Below are positions 2,993 to 51,594 of a stretch of DNA of 51,594 nt, in pieces (within the stretch, counting starts at the first letter, position 1; each line of letters begins with the position of its first letter). A program made the position numbers and the translations under genes. This DNA comes from Ginglymostoma cirratum (Eukaryota): NCBI GenBank assembly GCA_024137785.1, contig JAHRHZ010000085.1:3664869-3716462 (forward strand), given 5' to 3'. Below the pieces are notes generated by a model that was not told the DNA's origin, did no database searches, and saw only the letters and a list, made by a program, of their open reading frames with translations.

Positions 2993-3106
2993 ATTTTGCC
3001 GCCAAAAACCGGGTTGCTAAGGTTGCTCTATGTGCCACTGGAGCACTTGCAATTCTATTGTGCACAGTGATGATTGTGAAGCGTCTTCTCTTCATTATAT
3101 CTAAAG
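2993..3106 (+). CDS. SIRPalpha-like receptor gene 1, transmembrane exon
   Basis: ctaacAG|...AAAG|GTatga, 114 nt, phase 1-1. Translates xFAAKNRVAKVALCATGALAILLCTVMIVKRLLFIISK (hydrophobic stretch followed by KR). Confidence 0.8.
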
Positions 3107-3546
3107 GTATGAATAGGAATATATATACTGAATGAAATAACTTCCATCTGAGTATTGATTAAACAACCTGAATTGCATTCACATAATCGGGTACTGAAAT
3201 CTGAATTCTCCAGTTGAAATAAATATATGATGTGAAACGACTTGCAAGCATTTGTGTCACTTCAACACTCGCATTACATGTTCAGGTTCATAGCTTTAGT
3301 ATGCTAAAGCCTATCTGTTCAGATCTGTAGGTAGTCTGGTGAATTTGACTGATGAAGTAATATTTCCACAGCTTCAAAACATAACTCAATATGTGCACTT
3401 GAGTTGAACATTTTGAGTTACATTCTGAATCCAGTTAGCCTTTTATACTACTTTTGTATTTGAATTACATGGTATTTTGTTGGCTTACAGACGCATGCAA
3501 ACATCACATCTCTCTTGACAATTAATGCTAAATTTATTGTCGCCAG

Positions 3547-3590
3547 GTTCAAAGGAAAAAGTAAGAAATCCTACTCAACACAAAGATGAG
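3547..3590 (+). CDS. Gene 1, short cytoplasmic exon
   Basis: gtcgccAG|...GATGAG|GTaaag, 44 nt, phase 1-0, GSKEKVRNPTQHKDE. Links the TM exon in frame to the exon at 7268. Confidence 0.75.
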
Positions 3591-3699
3591 GTAAAGCCTT
3601 TTGTCATCAACTTTGCTTTGAACTTCATCTGAATGATTCAGACATTGCAATCAAAATAATATGCTTTAATCTATCTGTATGAAGTCAAAGCGTTTTACT

Positions 3700-5480
3700 G
3701 TTGTGACCTACCTTGACTCAATTTTCTCCCCTGTGGTCCAAGCACTTCCCACCTACATCCAGGACACAAACCATGCTCTTTGGAAACTTTCAGTTCCCTG
3801 GACCCCAGTATTTCATCTTTACCATGGATGTGCAATCTCTACGCACATCTATTCCCCACAAGGAGGGCCTACAGGCCCTCAGTCTTTTTCTCTACAACAG
3901 ACCCATTCAGTTCACCCCCACCAACACTCTCTTCCATCTTGTCGAACTAGTCCTCACCCTCAAAAACTTTTCCTTCAATTCTTTCCACATTCTCCAAATT
4001 CAATGGCTTGCCATGGACACTTGCATGAACCCCAGCTATGCCTGTCTGTTTGTCAGTTCTGTCAAATAGTCCCTGTCAGTACGTACACCAGTGCTGTTCC
4101 CCAACTCTTCTGCCGTGACATCAATGATAGCATCGGGCTGCATCCTGCACCCAGGCTGAACTGGAGCAGTTCATTGATTTCACTAGCAACTTCCATACCC
4201 GCCCTCACATTCACTTGGTCTATCTCAGACACCTCCATCCCCTTTCTTGACCTCGCCATTTCCATTTCTGGCAACAGTTTACGGACCGACATTTATTGTC
4301 AACTCACGGACTCTCATAGATACCTGGACTACACCGCCTACCACCCTGTATCCTGCAAAAACTCCATCCAATTTTCCCAATTCCTTCACCTTCCTCACAT
4401 CTGGTCTGACATGGTCTACTCACAAGCATTCCAGATGTCTGCCTTTTTCAAACAACACTCTCTTCCGCTTCTGTCGTCCAGATAGCCCTCCACCACATGT
4501 CTTCCATTCCCTGCTTGACAGCTCTTAACCACTGCCCCCACCCCCAAACATAATAAAGAGAGAGTTCCCCCTTGTCCTCACTTTCCACCCCATCAGCCTC
4601 TGCATCCAATGTATCATCCTCAAACACTTCCACTAACTGCCATTAGACCCTACCACCCAGAACATCTTCCACTCCCCACCCCTCTCTGCCTTCCGCAAGG
4701 ACCATTCCCTTTGCTACTCCTTAGTTCGTGCCACACTCCCCACCAACTACTCCAACCTGACCTTTATCTTGCTGTTGTAACTGTAAATGATGTAACACCT
4801 GCCCACACACCACCTTCCTCACCTCTATCCAGGGCTTTCAACACTCCTTCCAGGTGAGACAGAGCTTCACCTGCATCTCCTCCAACCTGGTCTTTTGCAT
4901 CTGGTGTACACAATGTGGTCTTCTCTGCATCAGTGAGACCAGACATAGGCCAGGTGATCGTTTTGCGAGCATTTTTGCCTGGCCTGTAATGGTGAGCCTA
5001 ATCTCTTGGGCACTGTCCATTTCTACTCCCCCCCTCCCTCCCCGACTCCTTCTCAGGCATCTCCATCCTTGGCCTCCTCCAGCGTCACAGCAACTGAGAA
5101 CGCAATTTTGAACAACAACACATTATCTTCCTCCTGGGCACCCTCAGCCTGGAGGACTCAACATTGAGTTCTCCAATTTCAAATAATTTTCCAACCCATC
5201 ACCACCTCCCCTTCTAGCCCCACCTCCTCCCTTTCATTCCACCTTCTGACGCTCCCTTCCAGCCACCAACCGGATTCATCTCTCGCAATGACCACTGTCC
5301 ACCTATCACCAACATTCTGCTACCCTGCCCTCTCTCCTCCACTTTATCTACAGCTCCCCCTACCCCCACATCCAGCCCTGAAGAAAGGTAATACCTGAAA
5401 TGTTGACTTCTCATTTCCTTCAGTTGCTGCCTGGGTTGCAGTGTTCGTTCAGCCTCCTTTGTGTCTTCCTTGACGAAAGT
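3700..5480 (+). mobile_element. Penelope-like retroelement, 5'-truncated and degenerate (RT + GIY-YIG endonuclease + terminal repeat)
   Basis: LPTYIQDTNHAL, FTMDVQSLRTSIPH, IPFLDLAISI, DSHRYLDY (PLE RT); FTCISSNLVFCIWCTQCGLLCISETRHRPGDRF (GIY-YIG). Confidence 0.9.
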
Positions 5481-7267
5481 GTAACATTGCCTTTGATATG
5501 AAAGGAACATATAGAAAGAAATGATTGAATGTATTACAAACACTTACAACTCTGATGCTTGTCATGAACAATTCCACCATTGTACGGTCACTCATGTTTC
5601 AAGGTTCTCTCACAACAACATCGTTAATTAACTATTTTTTGTCATATGTTACTAGATGGACATAGTTCTCTCATCTGTTCCTCAACATACTACTCTCAAA
5701 AGCTATCCCGAACACACTCCAAACCTCATCCTTCACAGCTTTCGTGTTCATTAGTTTGTCAAGCCTTTATCTAGATTGAATCCAGCCCTGATTGTTGCAC
5801 AAACTATGTACCACATGTCACAAATCTTTCTATTTAGTCTACACCTAACGTTACTCCTAGTGTTTGTGGCTTATAAGCAATTACCAATGATTCCTGCTTC
5901 TTGCTGTTCCTTAGCTTCACCATAGAAGATTCCTCATTTTATTATTCCAATCTCAAATCCTTCTTCACTGATCCCACCCATTACTACTCGCTAATACTAA
6001 CATATCTTCTTTTCCTTTGTCCCCTCCTAAATGTCATTGAATATTATTGAATAATCAGTTGTCCTGATTATCCTGCAGTGATGCGTTTGTAATGTCGATT
6101 ACGCCATCTCCATTCATCTCTATTTATTTGTTTTTAATCATCTACTTGTTGCAAGTAATGCATGCATTGAGTAGACTGCCCTTGAAATTGTCATTGTTAA
6201 CATGATTCTAAGCTTTGCTAATGCTTACCTTCATTTCCCCTGGTCTTGTCAGGTTGTGAAATCCTGTGTTTCACTGACTCAGGTGCAGAAGTGCAGATCA
6301 GAAGAGAAAAGAAATTCCTAATGATAAAGTACCTTGCATAAAACGTCTAAGAGCATATATGTAAATTAAAACTGAATTCTTGTATTTTGTTCTTTGAATG
6401 AAAGGAACACCATTGTTTATCCATTAAATTATTTCATTGCTCTCTGTATGACTATTAATGCTCCCCATTAATATGTTGCCTCGTGTTTCTATCTTAACAA
6501 AAAATCTTTAGATAGAAATTAACAATTTGCTGGAAAATGTTGTATGGCATTTTCTGTACCTTAACGATTCTATACAATTGGATTGCAAGTTCATCTTCAC
6601 TAAAAAATCTTCACTGTCCCATTTGTAGTCAATTAAATGGTGCAATTGAAATAACTATAGAGAGCTAATTATTTCATCACTGTTCAACTGTCCAATAAAC
6701 AATTGCTTTTATCAGTATAATTAACTCATAATTTATGCATTAAGCAAAAAAAAATGCCAGTTATAAACCAATTATTGCACAAATCAAAAATAGCATAGAA
6801 GTTTAGTAATTACACACAGTTTGAATTTGTACTTTTATTTCCAAATGGAGAAACATTCATTTATGGAACTTTATTTATCTTTGTAAAGGACATTCAGACC
6901 AATTCCATTTAGAAAATACACAATATCTGCAACTTGCTATAGGATGTAATGTTGAATGATTTCCGTATGAATGTTGAAAATTAATAATGGTGAATTAATG
7001 CAATTATTTTTTGCACAGGAAACGGAATTTAGCAGAGTTCCTCTTCTAAGTTTTAATACTTTCAACCATGAAGCTTCATAGATTATGAGCAGGGTTGCGT
7101 CAAAGCTTTCATTTATGTCCAGTGGGGAGAGGGAGATTGTATACAGAAGTTTTAAGCTATTAAGAATGTAACGAAGAGATAGCAAACTCAAGGAGACAAA
7201 TTGATTGCCAATGGTTACTTGGCTGCAGAAAATAGAAATTAATGAATGTTAAACCTTAACTTTTCAG

Positions 7268-7378
7268 AGAAAACAAGAAACAGCTGAAGACAGATTAATA
7301 TATGCTCATCTTGATCTGGTCCATTCAAAGGATGCTAAAATTCCTAAGCTGCAGGATGAAAGAACAGTATATGCCGAG
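7268..7378 (+). CDS. Gene 1, cytoplasmic exon with ITIM
   Basis: ttttcAG|...GCCGAG|GTacct, 111 nt, phase 0-0. RKQETAEDRLIYAHLDLVHSKDAKIPKLQDERTVYAE, containing ITIM LIYAHL and TVYAE. Confidence 0.88.
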
Positions 7379-7517
7379 GTACCTTTCTGTTCATATGTAT
7401 GAATAAAGTAACTATTTTCTTAATTACAATCATTTGGTTTTGAGATAACGTTGAGTAATTCTTAACTTTTAGTGAAATTTGAAACAATAATGATCTACTT
7501 TCAATGTTGTTTTACAG

Positions 7518-7646
7518 ACCAAACATAGCATGAGCAAATGCCAGCTGACTTATGCTGCTCTGAATTTGAATGGTCCCAGATTAACAGCGAAGCCAGAACA
7601 CACAACTGCAACTCCATTGTATGCAGCGGTGAAAGCCAGCAGCTAA
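7518..7646 (+). CDS. Gene 1, terminal coding exon with ITIM and stop
   Basis: ttttacAG|TKHSMSKCQLTYAALNLNGPRLTAKPEHTTATPLYAAVKASS*, containing LTYAAL and PLYAAV. Confidence 0.88.
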   Translation, partial: TKHSMSKCQLTYAALNLNGPRLTAKPEHTTATPLYAAVKASS

Positions 7647-8274
7647 ATTAAATGATACTGAGACAAAAATCAAGTGTTATTGGTATTATGGGTGTTTTCT
7701 ATTCTTTTCTGCCTGGTGAAGTCTGTTTCATGGTCTTTAATTGCTTTCAAAAAATAGTTGTTAACTTTTTTCTTCTGTTAATGTCTCATGAACTAACTTT
7801 ATTTTGCCCTCAAACTTGCTGCACCTTTTGAGATAGCAACTGGCTTCATTCTAACTATTAAACTCATCATTCTTTTGAACTCTCCACTATGTTACACATA
7901 ATGAGCATCATTGTTTTCTAATAGATTTCTAAAAACTCCAATACCATCAGATTTTGCACGCGATTTCACTGCTAGTTACATTATGAAAATACTGATATTT
8001 TGATTCTGTTTGTTTTTTTCAGTGTAGGATGGTTCGAACTGTGCCAAATATATATCAGTTTTTCATTGCTTTATTCTTTTTAATTTGTTCATGTTTTATT
8101 GGATTTTTTGGATTTAAAGTGGTTGTTTGATCCACTATAATTCAAGCAATAGTTCTGATTTTATTAGACCTGTGTCATTCCACTTTAACCATGTTCTGTA
8201 AAAATATTTTTCCTTTCATTTCCCTTCTGTGAAGCTAAATAGGCCCAAGTGATAATTGGCTACAATACTTTGTT

Positions 8275-8670
8275 TTCGTTTGTTCAGTGGATGCAGGTTC
8301 ATTGGCTGGGCCAGCATTAATCGTCCATTCCTAATTGCACTTTAACTGAGTGGTTTACGAGGACAGTTCAGCGAGCCGCGAAGAGTCAACCACATGACTT
8401 TGGGTCTTGAATCACATTCAGGCCAGAGCTAGTAAGGATAACACATTTACTTCTGTAATGGGCATTAATGATCCCAATTTTTTTTTTTTTTTGTTTTGCA
8501 AAAGTCATGAGTGATACATGGTCAGAATTAACCTAGCTTTCAATTCCAAATTCTCAAATTGCATTCAGGTTTTCCCTTCTGCCATGGAGGAATTTTAACT
8601 CATGTCCTCAGAAAATTGGTCTGGGCCACTGAATTACCAGACCATTGACATGACCATGATGCTAATGCCT
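8275..8670 (-). mobile_element. DeuSINE-type tRNA SINE
   Basis: Reverse complement similarity to 13718-14067 (gagtcaaccacat, gaatcacattcaggccag). Confidence 0.7.
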
Positions 8671-10719
8671 CCTTGATTTCATTAATTGGCAATATTTCCT
8701 GCTCAAAAATGACTCTTCAAGTGGAGATAGCAAATAGAAATGCTCAATCCATCCAATGTTTATACCAATGTTTCAACCTTGATAACTCACCTTTTCAATA
8801 AAGTGCATTCCTGCAGAACTATTTGCAGCATCTCAGAAATAAGCACCTTCACAAGTCAAGAACATTTAATGTTCATAATTTTTTTTTGCATTTCTGGAGT
8901 CCAGCAGTTACTCCAGTTTCATATTGCCATAACACGTAATTTGAGGATGATCTGTTGATTGTTTCCCTGCAACAGAGCTAATGTCAAGCTTTATATTATT
9001 CTGGTAAATTGATCAGTATTTGTTTCCATTGAAGTTACTCTTTATTCAGTGCTACCTTTCTCCTGTTGGATTTACTTGTATAATGTTTAGTGTGAGCTTG
9101 AGTTACTGGTTTTGTGTTACTAACCAGCTTGCCCCCACCCCCACACCCCACCGCTGCTGTGTCTGATGTTAATAATTAACTTGGAAGTATGTTGTTGGCA
9201 GGCAATTGCTTTTCTAAAGCAAATTACAAAGCCCCGCTCTGAGGGGTTTGGATTCTGTGCACTCATGGACTATTGTTTGCCACAGATTCCTTGCAAACTA
9301 GCAAGGTTAATAGTGGGGTATCAAATGTTTGCTGGGGAGTTGTGAAATTTGCTTTGCTTAACAGTCAGGGACATGTAACGTTGCTGACAGAGAGAGCCTT
9401 TGAGTCGTGAAGTTCTTGGAAAGGGATGGAAATATTGTGAAATGTTCATCAGCAGGGACTGGTAGATTTAGTGAATTAGATTACCTGGAAGCGTAGAGAT
9501 TTTGTTAGTCCCGAAACAGAAGTACTGGGATAATCAAAAAACTCAACTTGCATTAATTCAGAGAAGCTCAGGTATGTGTTAGCTTCAGGAAGAAGCAATC
9601 ATTGTTCCAGTCTAAAATTTGTTGTGTCAATTAGCTTAAACCTACCATCTTAATATTATATGAAAGGTGTATTGAGAATTGCACTGGCATTATGTTTTTG
9701 ATACTAATTAAAAGCTAATTCCTTTCTTATCAATTTATTGAGGGGTGTTTTGTGATTAATAGGATTATACATTTTACTCTGTGCTTATAGTATTTGAATT
9801 TGTGTGGAATTTTATAGTTTTGTTTATTCTATTTTATCTTTGCTCTTTTGTAATGCATTTGCTTTGTTGATAAAGCAAAACCTATAGTATCGTGTGCTTT
9901 TGTTTACATCAGATGACACTGTTTAAACCAAACAAACAAAACGATGATCTATCAACCAGACTCCGAAGTGGTTTCTGATTCATCTAGTTTTTTAAAAAAA
10001 TTCAGCTGGGATCATCACAGCTACAAAAGCAATTTTCCAATCTCAGTGTACGGATTATGCACCTTTAATCTACACCAGCTATCACATCTCACAGTTTGGT
10101 ATTGATGACGGTTTCCATTGTCATATCTACTTCCAATCTCAGTAATATCAAGTACTTCAGTATTCTGGACTCTACTCTTAACTAGCTGAAAGAAGTATCC
10201 AGACTATTCAGTTATTTACCTTTGCAGATATAATTTCACAAATTTATTTTCTGATAATGCATTGTTTAACTTTTAAAACATCAGCATTGTTTTACTTATG
10301 CTCTGTGTTAAGATGTTGTTGATTTTTCTTTAAAAAAATCACTTTTGATGTCTCTGTATAAGAAAAATGTAATTTGGTATTGATAGAAGTGAAATGAGAG
10401 AAATGAGTGGTTTGATTTAGAAGCAATCATGTTGGTACATATCTAAATAAGACTAAAAAGGCAGAAATTAATTCTTTTGAAAAGCGACAGTATGATTAAT
10501 GTAGCTTCCACGTGAAGTGCAACTTAAACGGTTACACCTCAAACAGAATTTCATGAAACATTATTTTTTCTGGACCATATTACATAGCATATTACACCAA
10601 TTTAATCTATCATTGTTTTCTTATGAGTTATTTCATTTATATATAAATACGGGATATGATTTCAGAAGAGGTATGTTCAAATGCATACAGACAGTTAGCT
10701 GTAATATTAATATTTAAGT

Positions 10720-20320: not shown

Positions 20321-20777
20321 TCTGAGACACTCTGACCCGTTCCTCCGTGCATAAGGTCCCAAAGCGTGTGACTAGAGTGAGAGGCGAAAACATTTCCACT
20401 AATTGCTCAAAGATAGCAAGGACTACAGATGCTGGAGTCAGAGATAACAAGTCATGGAGCTGAAGGAACACAGCAGGTCACAAGGGTCCCGACCCGAAAC
20501 GTCAACTTTCCCGCTCCTTTGATGCTGCCTGGCCTGCTGTGTTCCTCCATTAATCGCTCTGCATCTTTTCTCATTCCCACTGCAATGGTGGATGGGCAAC
20601 GCACAACTTTTGATGCGACTGCAATGAAAACTAAAATAGCGATGCCTTTTCTTTAAGGGTCTTCCAAGTTCTATCCGATCAGTGTGAGATTCCAATATTC
20701 CGGGGTTTATTACTGCGGCGTTAGAGAAGGGGCAGGGATGATGTCCAATGGCAGTGGGACTGAGCTCCGGGTAAACG
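20321..20777 (+). pseudogene. Gene 2, IgV-set exon with germline-joined J-like strand, disrupted
   Basis: gatAG|..*DTLTRSSVHKVPKRVTRVRGENISTNCS [insertion] ...QWWMGNAQ (frameshifted) ...*GSSKFYPISVRFQYSGVYYCGVREGAGMMSNGSGTELRVN|GTgagt. B-strand Cys, C-strand Trp, YYC and GSGT motifs are present; in-frame stops at 20323 and 20654. Confidence 0.85.
20409..20549. mobile_element. Short palindromic Penelope-derived element inserted in the V exon
   Basis: gaacacagcaggtca ... ggcctgctgtgttc arms; flanked by ccactaattgctc (20396-20408) and ccattaatcgctc (20547-20559), an imperfect TSD. Confidence 0.8.
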
Positions 20778-21014
20778 GTGAGTGATACCGAGGAACTGAA
20801 GTGCCCTCTGAAATTAATCAGTGAACAAGAAAATGTCAACAGTCCTGCAAATAATGCGGCAATTTCACCAGAAAGCATTTGCTGCAAATAAGGATAGTAG
20901 AACCATAAACCAGCACTGAAGAAATGCCTTTATTTTTATTTTCTTGTTCACTGGTTAATTTCATTAGGATGTAGTCCTCGTGTTTAGGGATTTTATGGTT
21001 AACACAAAAGGCTA

Positions 21015-21480
21015 GGGACTCTTGTGGTGCAGTGGTAATGGCCTTACCATTGAGTCAGGCAGCCTGAATTCAAGTTTCACTTGCTCCAGAGGTGCATAAT
21101 TACATCCCTGTACAAGTTTATTCAGCAATCTTAATGCACAAGGCAATTTGGTAAGGGGAGGCCCACTGCTACCTCACAGCACCAAGGACCTGGGTTTGAT
21201 TCCAGCCCGGAATGGTGGTCTGTATGGAGTTGCACATCCTCCCCATGCAAGTGTGGGTTTGTTCCAGGTATTTTGAATTCCTCCGACAATATATGAAATA
21301 TGTGCACATTAGGTAGATTGGCCATGCTAAATTGGCCATAGGTCCCAGGGATATGCAGGCTAGGGGAATTAGCTATGGTAAATATAGGGTTACAAGGATA
21401 AGGTAGGTCTAGGTGGGATGCTGTTTGGAGGGTTGGTGTGGACTCGATGGGCTGAATGGCTTGTTCCCATACTGTAGGGA
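21015..21480 (+). mobile_element. tRNA-SINE head followed by an HE1-type V-SINE
   Basis: gtggtgcagtggtaatg A box (~21025); V domain tgtatggagttgcacatcctcccc (~21220). Confidence 0.75.
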
Positions 21481-22484
21481 GCCTAAGGTGGAATGGATTT
21501 TGCAGTTAGCGCAGACACGCGTATAAGGTGAAGCGAGTGGCTGTTTAAGATGGCCTATAGATTGCAATTATATAAATTATGTTTTTTTTTCTCGAAATCC
21601 TGTCTGGAATTGCAACCAATCTCCCCCAGATAACTATAGAGCTTTCTATCAGATTCCTGGTTTGTAGGTAATGGAGAGAGTTTGCATAGAGAACATGCTT
21701 CACCACATGCTGCAGAAGACCCCTGCAGCAATAATGTCAGCAATTGTATGACATTTTGCATAACCATGGCTTGAAATAGAAGGACAATGTGCATAATTTA
21801 CACACTAGCACTCTGTTTTGAATCACCTCCTTCAATAAACGAATCATGGAAATGGCTAGCTTCTCCCACACTCAGGAGACCAATGTTACTTTTGCACAAC
21901 TGTTTCTTGATTCAAATCTGTGAAACAACAATGAAATTGTAAATATCAGTCAGAAAATGTGCTTTTAAATGAGGCATAGATGTAAAGGGAATGGGCAGCT
22001 GGGAAAAAATGATAACAAAGGGGAAATAGTGATATGATATACAACTAACAATGTTTTTCTTCATCTTCAGTATATTGAAGAAAAACTCTTGTAATGATAA
22101 TACATTATTTTCCGAGTCATATCTGATAGGTTCTTAATTGTAATCTATTTGTACAATTCAATTTTATTTATAGTAAACACCATCTTTACATTCTTATATT
22201 TTCTAGGCAGTAGAAACATTAACAACATTAATGCTCCTAATGCTAAAAGGAGATTAAAATTGAAGTTTCTTCTTAGCTCTATACATATTCGGAACATTTT
22301 AAAACGTTTAAAGGAAAATCACAATAAATATTTGAAGTTGGAAAGCTAAAGACCTTGGAGCTAAAGAGTGTTGGAGTGTCGGAGAATGACAGTAATTTTC
22401 AGCTATCCTGGGAAAGAGGTGCTTTTATATAAGGGACCAAACAGCTTCCTTTGGTACTATAAATCCTAATGGTCTACTTGGGTG

Positions 22485-22720
22485 GCATTGGCAATGTTCC
22501 CCTCCAAGTCACTCAGCACCCTGACTTGGAAATATATTGCCATTCCTTCACTGTTCATGGATCAAAATTCTGGAATACAAGGGCATTGTGGGTTTACTTA
22601 CAGCCTGTGGACTGCAGTGTTTCAAGCAGGCAGCTCACCACCTCTCTAGGATGATGAGAGGTAGGCAATAAAAAGTACTGGCCAGCCAGTGATGCCCACA
22701 TCCCATTAGTGAATAAAAAA
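22485..22720 (+). mobile_element. LINE 3' tail (same family as 11255-12280)
   Basis: gttccccctccaagtcactc-like block continues the 12250-12275 motif; ends gatgcccacatcccattagtgaataaaaaa. Confidence 0.65.
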
Positions 22721-23738
22721 AGTCAGATTTAGTAGAGGCTGACATGTACTTGTCAGTTTCTTTTTCTGCATAAATCTCCTTGAAACCTCCTTTCATCCTA
22801 CTCACCACTTATGTTTCCATATCAGCAAACTTAGAAATATTACATTTGGTCAGTATATCCAAATCAATTAGATACATTTTAGACAGTTTTAGTGACAGAA
22901 CCAACCCTTATCATGCCTTACTTGCAAAAGGACACCATATCGAACATCTTGAGAACTTGTTTAGTCTTACTGTCTTTTTTTCTGTCTGTCAGCCAATTTT
23001 CAATCCATAGCATTATATTAACCCAATTCCATGTTTTCTAATTCTGTTCACCAATCTACTTTGTGGGACTTTATCAAAAGCCTACATAAAATTCCTATAC
23101 AGCATATCTGCTGGTTCTTACTGGTTTCTACTGCAAGTACCATATTTATGGTAATGTGCTATTCAGTGTTGAAATTCTTGAGCTCAACGTAAAAGCAGGG
23201 AGGATGAATTGGACAAAGGTCACTGACCAAGTCAGATTAAAATAAATTAGTCCAACATTTCACCATGAATGAGTTATTCAATAAGATTTCACATTGCACC
23301 AACGAGGCTATAAGCAGGAAAGGGGTAACATGAATTAAATGCCTTCTCAAGAAATAAAAGGCATGAATTTTCAGAAAGGCCCAGTGTTGTGATGATAGAT
23401 TTATGGATATTTGTTTGGTCTTCCTGACCTTGTGTTTCTGATATAAACTCCTGCAGTGACGGTTGAAATTTTACATGAGCAGGTTCTGTTTAATTGGGCC
23501 ATAAATCTTTTGCAGTGCAGGCTTGAACTTTTCCCTCATCCAGTTTAGGTAAACAAAAGAATTAAAGAAACATGGTGTGATCAGCTTCAAATAATTCAAG
23601 CTAGTCATGGTGATAAAACATTCTGATGTAATTAAAATTCCAGTTGCTAAATGCTTTCCAGTCAGCCTCTCTTTCTTCTGCTGTGTTCAGTAATGGATGA
23701 AAAGTAATTTCAACTTATTTCCTTTAATTTATTTACAG

Positions 23739-24020
23739 TGCCACCAAATTCAGTGATGATTACTTGGCTGTCCTCTCCATTCATCACAATGTTCTGTACT
23801 ACAGCTAGCTTCTTCCCGACAGAAATTAACCTTATTTGGTATAAAAATGACAGCAAAATTACATCTAGAATAAATATTATAAAGTTCCAGAAAGAGGAGG
23901 GATTATATCAAGTTTCCAGCTCCCTGAACCAAGTGGAGATCTTGTCAGTTTATAGCTGTCAGGTTTTACACATTTCACTGGTAGACTCAGCCAATGACAA
24001 CTATTTAGTTTTGGATCAGG
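23739..24020 (+). CDS. Gene 2, Ig C1-set exon (open frame)
   Basis: tttacAG|...CAGG|GTaaga, 282 nt, phase 1-1. C1 motifs MFCTTASFFPTEINLIWYKN, GLYQVSSSL, YSCQVLHISL. Confidence 0.9.
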
Positions 24021-24612
24021 GTAAGAGTCTCAGCTTCTTCACATTCCCCTGAACTACACTTTGTTAAATTTAAAGGAGCAATACTTGCCCTATGTCTCCA
24101 ATAATCTGCAACAGAATGTTCTTCAAATCATAATGTTATTGATAAGAAATTGACTTCATGCTTCTAAAAAATGCTGGATATGATGGAAAGAAGCCATTTT
24201 GTTTATCTGACATAATCAAGTTCTTTGTCAATCTATTCTACTTGTTCCAAGCATCCATTCCTTCACAATAGATTCTCCCTTTGGGTTTTATTCCAATTCT
24301 CTTTCAAATGCTACCACTGAAACATCTTTGCTGCTTTTAGAAAAGAGATTCCAAGATGTGACATGCTGTATAAACAAAGGTTCCCCATTCCCTTGCCAAA
24401 TGTTGCCTGTTTGTCTGCCAATCACACTAAATCTGCATCCTTGGATAACCATCCATTTCACGACTGTAACTATTCCTTTTCTTTACCGTAACCAATGTTG
24501 ATTTTTGAGCAGCTATATCAATTTGTCTCAATCATTGCAGCACCATGAAGAGTGGTGCTAGCTTCTCCACTGATTCCACACAATGAAAATCCAATGTCCC
24601 TGGTGTCATTCC

Positions 24613-24680
24613 GGTATATATGTACATATATATATATATATGACACATATATATGTATGTGTGCATGTACACATATAGAT
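24613..24680. repeat. (TA)n/(TG)n microsatellite
   Basis: gtatatatgtacatatatatatatatatgacacatatatatgtatgtgtgcatgtacacatata. Confidence 0.85.
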
Positions 24681-25339
24681 TGTGAAGATATTCTGTTCTA
24701 GCAACCCATTCAGATTCCATAATTTAATCATCCTGAATCCCACTCGGATCTCCATTATTCTTCAGAATGAAATGCACCCCTTTAATTTTAAATTTTATTC
24801 ACCAAGTCTGTTGCATTTTTACAACACGCCAGTGCTTTTGATTATCTCATAATAGGTACAAAGAGGCTCCATATACTCCAAGACACATCCTTCATATATA
24901 TCTTTAACAACAAATGCTCTTCATAAAGAGAAGTGCCATTGATGTCTCGCCAATTAGAAAAGTAACTGTCTTAATGCTTCTCTAGCTTATAGATACATGG
25001 AGAGAGACAGGCAGAAGTGATGAGACATATTAAGCCCCACACATATATTCACAAAATCACCATGATCAAATCTTACTTCATAGAACATAAACATTAATAA
25101 TGTTAAACATGATCATTATGCTGATAAAATGCTAAAATGATCAGAAAAGGTAATTGTGTGTGCTTTAATCCATGTTTGCTCAGTTAATACTGCAATAGAA
25201 CCTCAGGATAAATGGAAAGTTTATTAGCTCAGTGAGATGCGATAGGTTTGATGTGTCAGTGTGGCCTGTTATCTGTTGTTCTGCTTATTTACCATCATTT
25301 GCGCTTTAAATAGTAATGTTCCACATTCTCTTAGTAAAG

Positions 25340-25447
25340 AAGAAAGTGTCTTCCTGTATTCCTTAGTGTCTAGCTGCATAGCAGGAGGTTTTATAATTTT
25401 GGTTCTGGCAATTTTTGTCAGGCGATGCAAAGTACAGAGATCTCGTG
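25340..25447 (+). CDS. Gene 2, transmembrane exon (acceptor uncertain)
   Basis: EESVFLYSLVSSCIAGGFIILVLAIFVRRCKVQRSR then G|GTaaga. The in-frame acceptor is a weak AAG at 25337-25339; the better TAG acceptors (25313, 25334) are out of frame by one base. Confidence 0.7.
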
Positions 25448-25889
25448 GTAAGACTGTGATTAAAAATTGGTTTTTAACATCTAAGTGTACTGCAATACTG
25501 TGGGAGTTAGACGGGGTAGGTTATTGCATCGACTGGGATCTGGATTTCGAGATTGCAGGCCACTGTACAGAGATTGTTTGTCCTACTGGTGGGGGAGGCT
25601 TGTGAAGAAGAAAGAAACAAAAATGAACCAGCCACATCAGGAAAACTTCGTCAAACAATAACTGTATTGTCAGGGTTTTTTTAAGATAAATGGCGATGAG
25701 AAATTGAACTGTGTATGTTAAATGTGACTAAGGCTGGATTGAATAAAGAAGGCACAGAAACCATTAATCAGGAATACAAACTAAAAGTAAGTACATCAAG
25801 ACAGAAAATTTTTCAACCATTCAACGGATCAGACACCATCAGTGGATATAAAGGCAAGGGTAATATTTCTGGCCATGAACACAGCAGAT

Positions 25890-26836
25890 ATGCTTACTAA
25901 GTTGGCAGATGACACCAAAATTGGAGGTGCAGTGGTCAGTGGAGAAGGTTACCTCAAAGTACAATGGGATCTTGATCAAGTGGGCCAGTGGTACGAGGAG
26001 TTCCAGAGGGAGTTTAATTTAGATAAATGTGAGGTGTTGCATATTGGAAAGTCAAATCAGGGCAGGACTTATACACATAATGGTAAGGACTTAATGGGGA
26101 GTGTTGCTGGACAAAGAGACCTTGGAGTGCAAGCTCGTAGTTCCTTGCCAATGGAGTCACAGGTAAACAGGATAGTGAAGAAGGAGCTTGGTATGCTTGC
26201 ATTTATTGGTCAGTGCATTGAGTATAAGATTTGGGTGGTCATGTAGCGGCTGTGCAGGCCACTGGTTAGGCCACTTTTGGAATATTGCATGCACTTCTGG
26301 TCTTTCTGCCAAAGGATGGATGTTGTGAAACTTGAAAGGGCTCAGCAAAGATTTACAAGGATGTTGCCGGGGTTGGAGGGTTTGAGCTATAGGGAAAGGC
26401 TGAATAGACTGGGGCTATTTTCCCTGGAGCATCGGAGGCTAAGGGTTGACCTTATAGAGATTTTTAAAATCATGAGGGGCATGGATACAGTAAATAGACA
26501 AGTTATTTTCCCTAGGGTGGGGAAGTCCAAAACTAGAAGTCATAGGTTTAAGGTGAAAGGGAAAGATTTAAAAGGGACCTAAGGGAAAACTTTTTCATAC
26601 AGAGGGTGGAGCGTGTATGGATTGAGCTGCCAGATGAATGGGTGGAGGCTGGTGCAATTACAGCATTTAAAAGGCATCTGGATGGGTATATGAATAGAAA
26701 AGGTTTGGAAGGATATAGGTCAAATGCTGGCAAATGGGACTAGATTTACTTATGACATCTAGTCGGCATGGGACAGTTGGACTAAAGGGTCTGTTTCTGT
26801 GCTGTATATCTTTTAGACTCTATGACTCTATGACTG
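25890..26836 (+). mobile_element. CR1 LINE 3' fragment
   Basis: KLADDTKIGG, FNLDKCEVLHIG, LERAQQRFTRMLPG; (actctatg)n tail. Confidence 0.9.
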
Positions 26837-27017
26837 TATAACACAGACCTGGAACATTAACTTTCTTTTTATTTCCACAAAATAATGTCTGACTTGCTTT
26901 GTTTCAGTAATAAAAATGATAGTCCTGCCTGTTAATGTCTGAACATCTTCTGAGTGTTGGCTGTTGCTGCTCTGTACTGGCAAATTAACTCCATGTCTTA
27001 GTTCAGAGCTTTAACAG

Positions 27018-27074
27018 AAAAAAAATGTACCGCCTGAATTAAGCAAACTCAGAACTTGAATGTCCATTGAGCAG
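27018..27074 (+). pseudogene. Gene 2, candidate decayed short cytoplasmic exon
   Basis: tttaacAG| acceptor. With one A removed from an A8 run it reads EKNVPPELSKLRT*MSIEQ, phase 1-0, ending at gagcag|ggagt (gtgagt minus one T). Its position matches gene 1 exon 3547-3590. Confidence 0.3.
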
Positions 27075-27229
27075 GGAGTGGACATGCATCAATCCTTATC
27101 CCATTTGGCCAGGATATGAAAAGTAACTATGAATTAGAATTAGCATTCAGATAAATGACACGAGCTCAAAGTTAGTGGTCTCCATTGTCCTCAGCAGAAA
27201 GTTACTTATCAGCCAATGTCATTTAAGGT

Positions 27230-27470
27230 GGAAAAACAGAAATTGCTGGAAAAATTCAGCAGGTCTGGCAGCATCTGTGGAGAGGAAATGGAGTTAGTGT
27301 TTTGGGTCAAGTGACCCTTCTTTAGAACTTTACAGAACTTCTTCAGAAGGGTCACTGGACCTGAAACGTTAACTCTGTTTTCTTACCACAGATACTGCCG
27401 GACCTGCTGAGTTTTTGTTGCAATTTCTTGTTTTGTTTCTGATTTGCAACATCAGTAGTTCTTTCATTTT
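27230..27470. mobile_element. Short palindromic Penelope-derived element (older subfamily)
   Basis: cagcaggtctggcagcatctgtgg ... ccacagatactgccggacctgctg arms; imperfect TSD aatgtcatttaagg (27215-27228) / aatgacattcaagg (27481-27494). Confidence 0.75.
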
Positions 27471-27609
27471 CATTTAATTTAATGACATTCAAGGCTGTGA
27501 TGTGCTGTATTTGTTCACCCCAAATATGCTTTGTTGTTACTTTCTTTAATCAATTTTGGTTTTGTTTCAATTTGGTAGGTAACTAATATTCCTCACAAAT
27601 TCTCCTCAG

Positions 27610-27720
27610 ATCATTCATGCAGGAAAGGAGGAGGGTCCAACTTATGCTGATCTCTACTTCAATGATCAGAGGAACATTTGGAAACCCAAAAGTGAGAAAG
27701 GTACCATTGTTTATGCAGAC
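27610..27720 (+). CDS. Gene 2, cytoplasmic exon with two tyrosine motifs
   Basis: ctcctcAG|IIHAGKEEGPTYADLYFNDQRNIWKPKSEKGTIVYAD|GTaaat; 111 nt, phase 0-0, the same size as gene 1 exon 7268-7378. Confidence 0.8.
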
Positions 27721-27923
27721 GTAAATTGCCATTTTATCCAGGACCAACTCTGAAACAGGTATGGGATAACAGCAACATGAGTTAATTCACTGATAAAAGG
27801 TACTGCAGATGCTGGAGAATCCGAGATAACAAGCATGGGGCTGGATGAACACAGCAGGTCAAGCAGCATCATAGGAGCAGGAAAACTTGACGTTTCGGGC
27901 CTAAACCCTTCATCAGACAGGTG

Positions 27924-28323
27924 NNNNNNNNNNNNNNNNNNNNNNNNNNNNNNNNNNNNNNNNNNNNNNNNNNNNNNNNNNNNNNNNNNNNNNNNNNNNN
28001 NNNNNNNNNNNNNNNNNNNNNNNNNNNNNNNNNNNNNNNNNNNNNNNNNNNNNNNNNNNNNNNNNNNNNNNNNNNNNNNNNNNNNNNNNNNNNNNNNNNN
28101 NNNNNNNNNNNNNNNNNNNNNNNNNNNNNNNNNNNNNNNNNNNNNNNNNNNNNNNNNNNNNNNNNNNNNNNNNNNNNNNNNNNNNNNNNNNNNNNNNNNN
28201 NNNNNNNNNNNNNNNNNNNNNNNNNNNNNNNNNNNNNNNNNNNNNNNNNNNNNNNNNNNNNNNNNNNNNNNNNNNNNNNNNNNNNNNNNNNNNNNNNNNN
28301 NNNNNNNNNNNNNNNNNNNNNNN
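27924..28323. other. Assembly gap (400 N)
   Basis: Run of N. Confidence 0.99.
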
Positions 28324-28330
28324 CACCTGT

Positions 28331-28358
28331 CTGATGAAGGGTTTAGGCCCGAAACGTC
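28331..28358 (+). ncRNA. Hammerhead ribozyme-like core (mirror copy on - strand at 27889-27916)
   Basis: CTGATGA-a-GGG(tttagg)CCC-GAAAC-GTC; palindromic ACGT at helix III. Confidence 0.5.
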
Positions 28359-28569
28359 AAGTTTTCCTGCTCCTATGATGCTGCTTGACCTGCTGTGTTC
28401 ATCCAGCCCCATGCTTGTTATCTCTTGAGTTAATTCACTGATTGGTGTAAGCAATTCGTAGTGAGTGTAGACCATTGACTTTTGGAATCTGATGAATGTC
28501 AAAGTTTTAAGGTTTAAGGTTAATAGTTAATCTTTCACTGAAATCTGTTCTAGCTTACATTTATTATTT

Positions 28570-31084: not shown

Positions 31085-33678
31085 TGAGGTACTATGGGCT
31101 GAGGTTAGGAACAGGAAGGGAGAGGTCTCCCTGTTCGGAGTTTTCTATAGGCCTTTGAATAGTTCCAGAGATGTAGGGGAAAGGATAGCAAAAATGGTTC
31201 TGGATAGGAGCGAAAGTAACAGGGTAGTTTTTATGGGGGACTTTAACTTTCCCAATATTGACTGGAAACACTAACGTTCAAGTACTCTAGATGGGTCAGT
31301 TTTTGTCCAATGTGTGCAGGAGGGTTTCCTGACACAGTATGTAGACAGGCCAACAAGAGGCGATGCCACATTGGGTAATGAACCAGGCCAGGTGTTGGAT
31401 TTGGACATAGGTGAGCACTTTGCTAATAGTGACCACAATTTGGTTACATTTACTTTAGCGATGGAAAGGGATAGGCATATACTGCAGGGTAAGAGTTATA
31501 GCTGGGGGAAAGGCAATTATGAGGTGATTAGGCAAGACTTAGGATGCATAGGATGGGGAAGGAGACTGCAGGGGCTGGGCACAATTGAAATGTGGAGCTT
31601 GTTCAAGGAACAGCTACTGCGTGTCCTTGATATGTACGTACCTGTCAGGCAGGGAGGAAGTGGTCGACCGAGGGAACCATGGTTTACTAAAGAAGTTGAA
31701 TCTCTTGTCAAGTGGAAGAAGGAGGCTTATGTAAAGATGAGGCGTGAAGGCTCAGTTAAGGTGCTTGAGAGTTACAAGTTAGCCAAGAAGGACCTAAAGA
31801 GAGAGCTAAGAAGAGCCAGGAGGGGACATGAGAAGTCTTTGGCAGGTAGGATCAAAGAAAACCATAAAGCTTTCTATAGGTATGTCAGGAATAAAATAAT
31901 GACTAGAGTAAGATTAGGGCCAGTCAAGGACAGTAGTGGGAAGTTGTGCGTGGAGTTCAAAGAGATAGGAGAGGCGCTAAATGAGTATGTTTCATCAGTA
32001 TTCACACATGAAAAAGACAATGTTGTCAAGGAGAATACTGAGATACAGGCTATTAGACTAGACAGGATTGTGGTTCATTAGGAGGAGGTGTTAGCAATTC
32101 TGGAAAGTGTGAGAATAGATAAGTCCCCTCGGCCGGATGGGATCTATCCTAGGATTCTCTGGGAAGCTAGGAAGGAGATTGCAGAGCCTTTGGCTTTGAT
32201 CTTTATGTCGTCATTGTCTACAGGAATAGTGCCAGAAGACTGGAGGATAGCAAATGTTGTCCCCTTCTTCAAGAAGGGGAGTAGAGACAACCCTGGTGAT
32301 TATAGACCAGTGAGCCTTACTTCAGTTGTGGGTAAAGTGTTGGAAACGATTATAAGAGATAGGATTTATAATCATCTGGAAAGGAATAATTTGATTAGGG
32401 ATAGTCAACACAGTTTTGTGAAGGGTAGGTCGTGCCTCACAAACCTTATTGAGTTCTTTGAGAAGGTGACTAAACAGGTGGATGAGGGTAAAGCGGTTGA
32501 TGTGGTGTATATGGATTTCAGTAAAGCATTTGATAAAGTTCCCCACAGTAGGCTATTGCAGAAATTACGGACGCATGGGATTGAGGGTGATTTAGCGGTT
32601 TGGATCAGAAATTGGCTAGCTGTAAGAAGACAGAGGGTGGTGGTTGATGGGAAATGTTCATCCTGGAGTTCAGTTACTAGTGGTCTACCACAAGGATCTG
32701 TTTTGAGGCCACTGCTGTTTGTCATTTTTATAAATGACCTGGATGAGGGCATAGAAGGATGGGTTAGTAAATTTGCAGATGACACTAAAGTCGGTGGAGT
32801 TGTGGGTAGTGCGGAAGGATGTTGCAGGTTACAGGGGGACATAGACAAGCTGCAGGGCTGGGCCGAGAAGTGGCAAATGGAGTTTAATGCGGAGAAGTGT
32901 GAGGTGATTCACTTTGGAAGGAGTAACAGGAATTCAGAGTACTGGGCTAATGATAAGATTCTTGGTAGTGTGGACGAGCAGAGAGATCTCGGTGTCCATG
33001 TGCATAGATCCCTGAAAGTTGCCACTCAGGTTGATAGGGTTGTTAAGAAGGCGTACAGTGTGTTGGGTTTTTTATTGGTAGAGGGATTGAGTTTCGGAGC
33101 CGTGAGGTCATGTTGCAGCTGTACAAAACTCTGGTGTGGCCGCACTTGGAGTATTGCGTACAGTTCTGTTCACCACATTATAGGAAGGATGTGGAAGCAT
33201 TGGAAAGGATGCAGAGGAGATTTACCAGGATGTTGCCTGGTATGGAGGGAAGGTCTTATGAGGAAAGGCTGAGGGACTTGAGGCTGTTTTCGTTAGAGAA
33301 GAAGGTTAAGAGGTGACTTAATAGAGACATACAAGACGATCAGAGGATTGGATAGGGTGCACAGTGAGAGCCTTTTTCCTTGGATGGCGATGGCTAGCAC
33401 GAGGGGGCTTAGCTTTAAATTGAGGGGTGATAGATGTAGGACAGATGTCAGAGGTAGATTCTTTACTCAGAGAGTAGTAAGGGCATGGGATGCCTTGACT
33501 TCAGTAGTTGTCGACTCGCCGACTTTAAGGGCATTTAAGTTGTTGTTGGATAAACGTATGGATGATGGTGGAATAGTGTAGGTTAGATGGGCTTCAGATT
33601 GGTTTCACAGGTCAGCGCAACATCGTGGGCCGAAGGGCCTGTACTGCGCTGTAATGTTCTATGTTCTATGTTCTATGT
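31085..33678 (+). mobile_element. Young 5'-truncated CR1 LINE (endonuclease end + RT + tail)
   Basis: GDFNFPNIDW, YRPVSLTSVVGK, VDVVYMDFSKAFDKVPH, SKFADDTK in ORFs 31314-32081 and 32088-33272; (ttctatg)n tail. Confidence 0.95.
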
Positions 33679-36734: not shown

Positions 36735-38880
36735 GTGAGACCATGAGACCATAAGACATAGGAGTGGAAGTAAGGCCATTCGGCCCATCGAGTCCACTCC
36801 GCCATTTAATCATGGCTGATGGGCATTTCAACTCCACTTACCCGCACTCTCCCCGTAGCCCTTGATTCCTTGTGAGATCAAGAATTTATCAATTTCTGCC
36901 TTGAAGACATTTAACGTCCCGGCCTCCACTGCGCTCCGTGGCAATGAATTCCACAGGCCCACCTCTCTCTGGGTGAAGAAATGTCTCCTCATTTCCATTC
37001 TAAATTGACCCCCTCTAATTCTAAGGCTGTGCCCATGGGTCCTAGTCTCCTCACCTAACGGAAACAACTTCCTTGCGTCCACCCTTTCTAAGCCATGCAT
37101 TAAGTTTCTATTAGATCTCCCCTCAACCTTCTTAACTCTAATGAATACAATCCCAGAATCCTCAGCCGTTCATCATATGTTAGGCCTACCATTCCAGGGA
37201 TCTTCCATGTGAATCTCCGCTGGACACGCTCCAGTGCCAGTATGTCCTTCCTGAGGTGTGGGGCCCAAAATTGGACACAGTATTCTAAATGGGGCCTAAC
37301 TAGAGCTTTATAAAGTCTCAGAAGCACATCGCTGCTTTTATATTCCAACCCTCTTGAGATAAATGACAACATTACATTCGCTTTCTTAATCACGAACTCA
37401 ACCTGCAAGTTAACCTTTAGAGAATCCTGGACTAGCACTCCCAGATCCCTTTGTACTTCGGCTTTATGAATTTTCTCACCGTTCAGAAAATAGTCCATGC
37501 CTGTATTCTTTTTTCCAAAGTGCAAGACCTCGCATTTTCTCACATTGAATTTCATCAGCCATTTCCTGGACCACTCTCCGAAACCGTCTAAATCATTCTG
37601 CAGCCTCCCCACCTCCTCCGTACCACCTGCCTGTCCACCTAACTTTGTATCATCGGCAAACTTTGCCAGAATGCCCCAGTCCCTTCATCCAGATCATTAA
37701 TATATAAAGTGAACAGCTGTGGCCCCAACACTGAACCCTGCGGGATACCACTTGTCACCGGTTGCCATTCCGAAAAAGAGCCTTTTTATCCCAACTCTCT
37801 GCCTTCTGTCAGACAGCCAATCCTCAATCCATGCCAGTAACTCACCTCGAACACCATGGGCCCTCACCTTACTCAGCAGCCTCCCGTGAGGCACCTTATC
37901 AAAGGCCTTTTGGAAGTCTAGATAGATAACATCCACTGGGTTTCCCTGGTCTAACCTACTTGTTATGTCTTCAAAGAATTCTAACAGGTTTGTCAGGCAC
38001 GACCTCCCCTTACTAAATCCATGCTGACTTGTTCTAATCCGACCCTGCACTTCCAAGAATTTAGAAATCTCATCCTTAATGATGGATTCTAGAATTTTAC
38101 CAACAACTGAGGTTAGGCTAATCGGCCTATAATTTTCCATGTTTTGTCTTGATCCTTTCTTAAACAACAGGGTTACAACAGCGATTTTCCAATCATCTGG
38201 GACTTCCCCTGACTCCAGTGACATTTGAAAGATCACAACCAATGCCTCCGCTATTTCCTCAGCCACCTCCCTCAGAACTCGAGGATGCAGCCCATCGGGG
38301 CCAGGAGATTTATCGATTTTTAGACTTTTTAGCTTTTCTAGCACTTTCTCTTTTGTAATGCCTACCATACTCAACTCTGCCTCCTGTCTCTCCTTAATTG
38401 TTGGGATATTACTCATGTCTTCCACTGTGAAGACTGACACAAAATACTTATTAAGTTCTTCAGCTATTTCCTTATCTCCCATCACTAGCCTTCCAGCATC
38501 AATTTGGAGCGGCCCAACGTCTACTTTTGCCTCTCGTTTGTTTCTTATGTATTGAAAGAAACTTTTACTATCATTTCTAATACCGGCTAGCCTACCTTCA
38601 TATTTGATCATCTCCTTCCTTATTTCTCTCTTTGTATTCTTCTGTTTGTTCTTGTACCCTTCCCAATCTTCTGATTTCCCAGTGCTCTTGGCCACTATAT
38701 AGGCTGTCTCTTTTTCTTTGATACATTTCCTGACTTCCTTTGTCAGCCATGGCTGTCTAATCCTCCCCCGGATAATCTTTCTTTTCTTTGGGATAAACCT
38801 CTGTATTGTGTCCTCAATTACACCCAGAAACTCCTGCCACTGTTCCTCTACTGTCTTCCCCACTCGGCTCTGCTTCCAAA
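36735..38880 (-). mobile_element. Young 5'-truncated CR1 LINE
   Basis: KSPGPDGLHPRVL, YRPISLTSVVGK, YLDFQKAFDKVPH, RPHLEYCVQFW in ORFs 37697-38863, 37100-37612 and 36828-37100. Confidence 0.95.
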
Positions 38881-39208
38881 GGACCTGTTGTGTTAGTGTT
38901 TCCTCATGTTTATGACTTCTATTTCTGGAACCATGTAGAAGTGTAATTGTTTATTTGATGCTTACTGTGTTCATCCTGTTTATAAATTTAAATACCTCTA
39001 TCATATCACCCTTCAACCTTAAAAGCAGAAAACGCAGAATTAGGAGTGCATTAATTTCTATGACCTTTGATGATGTTACTTTAGCTCCACCTATCGATAT
39101 GATCCAAATACAGCAGTGTTTTCTTGGTATCCAGAATTTTACCAATTTGCCTCTCGAATATATTAAAAAAAACTAAAAAGTAAATTTCACAATGATTTTC
39201 ACGACCAT

Positions 39209-51359: not shown

Positions 51360-51594
51360 GAATGAACCAGAAATGCTGGAGAAAGCCAGCAGGGTCAGCA
51401 GCTTCTGTGGAGACAGAAACAAAGTAAAAGTTTTGATTTCTATATGACTCCCCTTCGGAACTGCTTGTCTCTGTGCAGAAATGGTCAGAACAGCTGAGTT
51501 TCTCTAGTATTAGAGATAAAAGGTACTGCAGATGCTGGAGAATCTGAGATAACAAGCATGGGGCTGGATGAACACAGCAGGTCAAGCAGCATCA
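51360..51594. mobile_element. Two Penelope-derived elements; the second (51515-end) is near-identical to the left arm at 27795
   Basis: ataaaaggtactgcagatgctggagaatctgagataacaagcatggggctggatgaacacagcaggtcaagcagcatca. Confidence 0.8.

Follow-up and report, generated by a model that had tools for sequence, protein, structure and literature searches.

Does the nurse shark possess an inhibitory receptor of the SIRP-alpha type, or a receptor of another family whose tail resembles it? The question is raised by a gene in a stretch of Ginglymostoma cirratum DNA (assembly GCA_024137785.1, contig JAHRHZ010000085.1, forward-strand positions 3,664,869 to 3,716,462), the whole of which, at 51,594 nucleotides, is referred to here as the window. 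A sequence-only reading had noted four exons joining into a transmembrane (TM) domain and a tail with four tyrosine motifs, and had taken them for a SIRP-like inhibitory receptor of cartilaginous fish with its immunoglobulin (Ig) ectodomain encoded upstream. We find that the four exons are real, transcribed and spliced, and from sequence comparison the gene is probably a transcribed one-V, one-C1 inhibitory receptor of a chondrichthyan paired family, predicted to recruit SHP-1/SHP-2-type phosphatases.

All four exons (Table 1) have AG acceptors and the first three have GT donors, and when joined at these boundaries they form a single open frame of 131 residues ending in TAA. The encoded protein has a hydrophobic core of 19 residues (mean Kyte-Doolittle value 2.58) followed by 102 residues, in which the tyrosines of LIYAHL, TVYAET, LTYAAL and PLYAAV are spaced 23/14/23, so the expected TM domain and ~100-residue tail are both present. 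By the definitions of the immunoreceptor tyrosine-based motifs, inhibitory (ITIM) and switch (ITSM), in PMC12151841, the ITIM consensus (S/I/V/L)xYxx(I/V/L) fits LIYAHL and LTYAAL and not TVYAET or PLYAAV, that is, two of the four motifs. TVYAET is created only by splicing, with genomic read-through giving TVYAEV and a stop six codons later. Read-through of intron 3 at 7379-7400 would yield a shorter tail with a canonical ITIM and ITSM (TVYAEV), and no form retaining this intron was present among the contigs of the runs aligned here. The earlier statement that there are no disabling mutations stands for these four exons only and has to be qualified for the TM exon, where this copy has three basic residues replacing the Ser, Val and Cys of its paralogs, cutting the hydrophobic run to 19.

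Contigs or reads from public sequence runs were aligned to the locus for eight of 12 candidate runs, and splice joints were called under a 31-letter bridging rule. The runs holding spliced contigs are not on record as RNA (X2 is entered as 'RNA?' and X3-X5 as '?'), and we recognise their contigs as transcripts because the GT..AG introns are missing. Sequences spliced across the junctions, a check set beforehand, were found: the 7378/7518 joint is bridged in three of the eight runs (X2, X3 and X4, from two studies) and the 3590/7268 joint also in three (X3, X4 and X5, from one study). A 192-base X2 contig spans 7280-7610 with intron 3 removed and zero other letters, and one of 622 bases from X4 opens with the final 13 bases of the TM exon, continues across exons 2, 3 and 4 and reaches the 3' untranslated region (UTR) with 0 mismatches. 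The nearest paralog is only 93% identical across exons 3-4, so this copy is the most likely source of contigs that match it without a mismatch; the depth of spliced contigs is 4-24. In X3-X5, the 3106/3547 joint appears only as 12-13-letter overhangs and the joint to the upstream exon only as 20-27-letter overhangs, under the bridging rule in both cases, and among the loose bases upstream of 2993, 23 of 27 agree, by eye, with the last part of the C1 exon of a paralog. X6, X7 and X11 gave no exon cover and X1 covered the 3' UTR only; the raw-read RNA runs X6 (29 reads, on the intronic repeat) and X7 (none) are no evidence on expression. Reads piling on the intron 2 repeat carry many other letters. 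Extra exons seen by eye at ~6253 and ~7019 were dropped, as contigs join 3590 straight to 7268.

The gene has the TM exon, the module exons with tyrosines 23 residues apart and the cluster position that define a large family. Contigs C85 and C84 hold 24 matches to its tail, and the C1 exon of a paralog matches at least 73 places in the genome, at least 72 of which are on the same two contigs. In one close paralog on C85 the V, C1, TM and three tail exons follow one another and are all open, and Pfam assigns the second domain of this paralog to the C1-set (E 5.5e-12) and its first to Ig/V-like domains; the C1-set domain of the family has two cysteines. Protein searches return members from sharks, rays and chimaera, in keeping with a gene of cartilaginous fish. 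The closest, the zebra-shark protein XP_048402855.2 (P0174, 'uncharacterized'), is identical at 95 of 131 residues over the four exons, shares their joints and has a single V and a single C1 domain, and to call the gene hidden was therefore an overstatement. In the predicted structure of P0174, two Ig domains are followed by a TM helix (255-285), and the tail is modelled with low confidence. An Ig ectodomain upstream of the window is supported by the transcript overhang matching the family C1 exon and by the V-C1 layout of paralogs, which also speak against the unrelated Siglec/CEACAM-type ectodomain that had been considered. The gene thus likely encodes a type I membrane protein with an Ig ectodomain, its V part being taken from paralogs and the zebra-shark model.

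Among 47 family proteins screened, 41 have a TM segment, and 8 of these (6 clusters; chimaera, sharks and sawfish) show a 22-23/13-14/23 tyrosine pattern, while in 14 of the 41 the TM begins with an arginine and the tyrosine motif is absent. Activating partners show this pattern, as in NKp30 and NITRs. A GxGT J-like strand is present in the V exon of many members and degenerate in the sub-branch of this gene. The V-C1 receptors modelled in RefSeq share with it the V-C1-TM layout, the joints, the TVY(A/S)(E/Q)T joint motif and the 23/14/23 spacing, but lack the added basic residues in the TM of this copy. Their automatic names vary between SHPS-1-like (for example elephant-shark XP_007902824.2 and Heptranchias XP_067853494.1), NCR3LG1-like, tapasin-related-like, Ig-lambda-like and uncharacterized. 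These comparisons point to a family of chondrichthyan clustered V-C1-TM receptors dating to the chimaera-shark split. A full-text literature search found no published description of it, which does not establish its absence from print. Further, more divergent clusters of family C1 exons lie at 9.6-9.9 Mb on C85 and 6.7-7.5 Mb on C84 (36-49% identity to the query), and a single C1 match on C209 looks like an exon of MHC class II type rather than a family member.

Examination of the tail exons indicates that a single 37-codon exon module is present twice in the tail, in register. Exon 3 and exon 4 each begin in phase 0, carry tyrosines at codons 12 and 35, and are identical at 48 of 111 bases without gaps, compared with 28.9 +/- 4.8 for random stretches of the window. 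The module count among relatives ranges from 0 to 4, with one in a second family gene of the window, three in an elephant-shark model and four in a Heterodontus model, and because of this variation four tyrosines are not diagnostic of SIRP-alpha. In internal modules the second motif ends in YAE and the T is supplied by the next exon; the donor GT of intron 3 supplies bases 1 and 2 of a Val codon with which an ITSM would be complete, and the joint motif T(V/I)Y(A/S)(E/Q)T occurs repeatedly, in chimaera as well as in sharks. Use of motif 2 by SAP is speculation. The likeness to the SIRP-alpha tail is, judging from these exons, more likely a parallel doubling of a common ITIM plus TxYxx cassette than proof of orthology, and the exon-module view explains family tails with two, four, six or eight tyrosines.

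The domain layout separates the gene from several known receptor types. NITRs of ray-finned fish (bioRxiv 10.1101/2021.06.11.448072) are germline V(J) receptors that occur in clusters and have inhibitory forms with an ITIM, activating forms with a charged TM and pseudogenes, which is the likeness to the present cluster, but their second domain is I-type with six conserved cysteines, and the C1-set domain with two cysteines does not agree with it. PD-1 is described in PMC11599192 and PMC12151841 as having a single V, no C1 and a tail with one ITIM and one ITSM; the C1 exon before the TM and the four tyrosines do not agree with membership in the PD-1/CD28 family. UrIg, UrIg2, PRARP and NKp30 are non-rearranging VJ-C1 genes (PMC10751288 and PMC12227049) and share with family members a V exon with a joined J-like strand followed by C1, but genes of the UrIg/PRARP/NKp30 type are MHC- or Ig/T cell receptor (TCR)-linked. 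Foldseek did not separate B7-family, Fab and UrIg2 chains. In a 25-row tree, the proteins that we take by likeness to be UrIg-like stand on a separate branch from the family. The reedfish VJ-C1 protein XP_051776342.1 (P0181) reaches 41 bits on the family V profile, far above SIRP V domains (14-20) and B7-H6-type full V domains (14-22). In this protein the family may have a relative among bony fish.

Mammalian SIRP-alpha is a type I Ig superfamily receptor with V and C1 domains, four paired tail tyrosines, SHP-1/2 recruitment and CD47 as ligand (PMC8211255). Both tails have two pairs of tyrosines, spaced 23/14/23 here and 24/17/24 in rodent SIRP-alpha, but SIRP-alpha has a V-C1-C1 ectodomain (rodent P0180) compared with V-C1 in the close paralog and the zebra-shark model, this copy contributing the TM-proximal C1, and four of four canonical motifs compared with two of four. 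The tyrosines of human SIRPA are in one last exon, whereas here they are in two separate phase-0 exons. The SIRP family is itself paired, with activating members, and SIRP-beta1 has a TM Lys where the short-tailed sisters here have a TM Arg. As V-only SIRPs exist, the one-C1 layout excludes the layout of SIRP-alpha more than it excludes SIRP descent.

Several observations, in this paragraph and the next, weigh against a working receptor of a separate family. Three of them would favour the cluster being the cartilaginous-fish SIRP family and this gene a two-domain SIRP-alpha co-ortholog that binds a CD47-like self marker and blocks phagocytosis, which we consider unlikely: in a PDB search with the V+C1 profile, SIRP-alpha comes first once antibody and titin chains are set aside (E 1.5e-29), and SIRP-gamma also ranks high; a forced clade of family and SIRP is not rejected by the approximately unbiased (AU) test (p=0.166); and family support falls to 70/93 in a 25-row tree. 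The paired tyrosines, the presence of LTYADL in paralogs, rodent SIRP-alpha as the only tetrapod match of the alignment search (E 2.6e-21) and the top score of a lungfish SIRP-like C1 on the family C1 profile (56.4 bits, level with the 56.1 of a B7-H6-type C1 from a ray) point the same way. They are opposed by the single C1, by V domains that resemble those of SIRP no more than other V domains, with SIRP scoring far below the reedfish protein on the family V profile, and by the free trees, which do not join the two groups; in the 35-row tree the 23 family rows form one side of a branch supported at 95/96, apart from SIRP and B7-H6 types. These trees hold only 2-3 SIRP rows, with PRARP and NKp30 sequences outside them; two IgH rows without a clean C1 were omitted from both, P0125 and P0077 from the first and 12 of the 23 family rows from the second, and outgroup labels other than those directly confirmed are presumed from motifs. 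SIRP chains are also absent from the best 60 PDB chains for the V-only profile, a search dominated by multi-domain adhesion proteins and not discriminating, and the tail similarity to SIRP-alpha beyond the motifs is marginal (score 60, reached by 3.3% of motif-fixed shuffles). The mammalian SIRP locus is linked to NSFL1C/PDYN/PSMF1; here an NSFL1C-like SEP gene is on C87, with no family or SIRP-like Ig exon in the 80 kb around it, PI31 is on C138, and the opioid-precursor search gave one match on C228, which we take to be PENK-like. A genome search with rodent SIRP-alpha, in a reduced mode, and one for the CD47 family gave no match, and neither is informative. The layout is not upheld as SIRP-type by descent, the module being doubled and variable in number, and in the trees the family is its own group, probably separate from SIRP, with kinship neither shown nor rejected. 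The automatic SIRP label is unreliable, because in the reptile RefSeq models P0132 and P0161, named 'SHPS-1' or 'SHPS-1-like', Ig domains are placed after the TM, and the 35-row tree puts P0132 with B7-H6-type proteins. It is very improbable that the family is instead an expansion of B7-H6 (NCR3LG1), the NKp30 ligand, and this protein mainly a ligand with a reverse-signalling tail. B7-H6 does share the two-domain V-C1 ectodomain, some family models are named NCR3LG1-like, and in structural alignment the predicted P0174 ectodomain gives its highest identity with B7-H6 (Z 14.0, root mean square deviation (rmsd) 3.1, 182 residues, 30% identity), although Z is tied with SIRP-gamma (Z 14.0, rmsd 4.2, 177 residues, 20% identity); a forced clade of family and B7-H6 gave AU p=0.070. 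However, B7-H6 is without the tandem ITIM cassette, and skate has a distinct relative of it, P0142, which lies outside the family, has human B7-H6 as by far its best match (E 9e-37), groups with B7-H6-type proteins in both trees and is on a 46.8-Mb record, the skate family member being on a different, 51.0-Mb record; by these comparisons it is a different gene from the family. RPS13, which is linked to B7-H6, is on C62 and not on the cluster contigs, and B7-H6 is absent from the best 60 PDB chains for the family V+C1 profile.

The remaining points concern the integrity of the gene, and would fit a copy that is transcribed and spliced but decaying, with a lesion in V or C1 or the altered TM preventing a working surface receptor, a state of affairs that we regard as distinctly unlikely. 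The cluster is evolving by birth and death: of the 25 tails that could be aligned, this one included and two weak matches lacking splice sites set aside, 16 are broken by stops, frameshifts or faulty splice sites, three are open and short of one or two tyrosines, and six retain all four tyrosines, their exons being open and their splice sites canonical (exon 2 of one of them was not located). A stop interrupts the C1 exon of one paralog whose tail is open, and in such birth-and-death evolution an intact tail is no guarantee of an intact gene. The ratio of nonsynonymous to synonymous substitution (dN/dS) in the tail is ~0.5 when this copy is compared with three distant open paralogs and 0.74-1.08, near 1, for the four closer ones; in five of seven paralog pairs the TM exon has a higher dN than dS. 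These values show weak constraint on the tail. With Thr at +3 in motif 2 and Pro at -2 in motif 4, neither fits ITIM or ITSM. The three new basic residues around the TM core occur in this copy alone, and its own leader, V and C1 exons, upstream of the window, are represented here by paralogs and transcripts. Against decay stand the spliced contigs from two studies, as an upstream stop is expected to lower transcripts through nonsense-mediated decay, together with the intact four tyrosines and splice sites, a 19-residue core that is still membrane-spanning and the open, ortholog-like zebra-shark model.

As an inhibitory member of a paired family, the receptor would be clustered by ligand engagement of its V domain and its tail tyrosines would then be phosphorylated by Src-family kinases, which act on the tyrosines of ITIM receptors. 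Each module would present its proximal ITIM (LxYAxL) and a second site 23 residues on to the tandem SH2 domains of SHP-1/2/2L, much as the ITIM and ITSM of PD-1 engage tandem SH2 domains, and the phosphatase would damp activating signals, probably including those from the short-tailed TM-arginine sister genes. With LIYAHL and LTYAAL fitting the ITIM consensus, inhibitory signalling is the likely predicted function, as had been proposed. By analogy the receptor may work like SIRP-alpha, PD-1 or the inhibitory NITRs. Rapid birth and death in the cluster favours a variable ligand, such as a pathogen surface or a polymorphic self marker, over one fixed partner. It is an improbable but wider proposal that the cluster would be the counterpart in sharks of the KIR and NITR paired receptor systems, so far missing there and made up of germline V(J)-C1 chains, with inhibition set by 0-4 module copies, that the doubled form would be older than the chimaera-shark split and also the source of the SIRP-alpha tail, and that T(V/I)YA(E/Q)T would be an SAP-type switch site arising from an ITSM Val codon turned splice donor.

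To the right of the cluster, the first non-family gene found is an Aa_trans amino-acid transporter, with exons at L069:146-260 and L069:9192-9617, ~200-210 kb past the end of the window, which marks the right flank and is presumably SLC38A8-like. MLYCD is the human neighbour of SLC38A8; it is on C223, away from the cluster, and a 16q-type setting is not confirmed. On the left flank no non-family gene was identified in 100 kb screened for Ig exons only. The window also contains the second family gene, which is pseudogene-like (Table 1). Positions 1-1750 are 84-85% identical to two places within 130 kb upstream and are apparently a repeat spread in the cluster. A 400-N gap at 27924-28323 (region 27780-28440) is flanked by inverted repeat copies with 101 bases identical, a possible assembly artefact, and reverse-transcriptase frames of a long interspersed nuclear element (LINE), 190-417 codons in length and presumably CR1-like, lie at 31275-33578 (+) and 37103-38950 (-).

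Table 1. Coordinates within the window of the exons, motifs and transcript features of the four-tyrosine gene and of the second family gene.
Feature	Position	Strand	Details
TM exon	2993-3106	+	114 nucleotides, phase 1/1; 0 other letters in X3, X4 and X5 contigs
Hydrophobic core VALCATGALAILLCTVMIV	3022-3078	+	Within TM exon
Short juxtamembrane cytoplasmic exon	3547-3590	+	44 nucleotides, phase 1/0; counterparts in paralogs
Intron 2	3591-7267	+	3677 nucleotides; removed as GT..AG in contigs; multi-copy repeat at ~3900-5550
Tyrosine module 1 exon	7268-7378	+	111 nucleotides, phase 0/0; spliced contigs
LIYAHL	7295-7312	+	ITIM consensus; module 1
TVYAE	7364-7378	+	End of module 1; completed by T from next exon
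Intron 3	7379-7517	+	139 nucleotides; removed in contigs of X2, X3 and X4
Tyrosine module 2 exon and stop	7518-7646	+	Phase 0/stop; in register with module 1
LTYAAL	7545-7562	+	ITIM consensus; module 2
PLYAAV	7614-7631	+	Module 2
Likely 3' UTR	7647-8802	+	Contig cover in pieces to 8700, the end of the stretch compared; end inferred
Candidate AATAAA polyadenylation signal	8797	+	From sequence
Second family gene, pseudogene-like	20561-27750	+	Different sub-branch; GxGT J-like strand
Second gene, in-frame stop in V remnant	20654-20656	+	High-copy repeat at ~20400-20545
Second gene, open C1 exon	23739-24020	+	
Second gene, open TM exon	~25316-25447	+	
Second gene, one-module tail, open	~27613-27750	+	PTYADL and IVYADV, spacing 23

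Genes of this type are already modelled in RefSeq, and no new mechanism is shown by this copy alone; what is new is a verified spliced copy with transcript support, a two-module origin for its tail and a tested caution on the SIRP label, in that 'SIRP-alpha-like' names in databases should not be read as orthology. Ig, TCR and MHC occur together in no lineage older than the sharks, whose inhibitory self/non-self receptors have received little description. This copy is among the few in its sub-branch with both an intact four-tyrosine tail and transcript support, and is thus a practical candidate for cloning.

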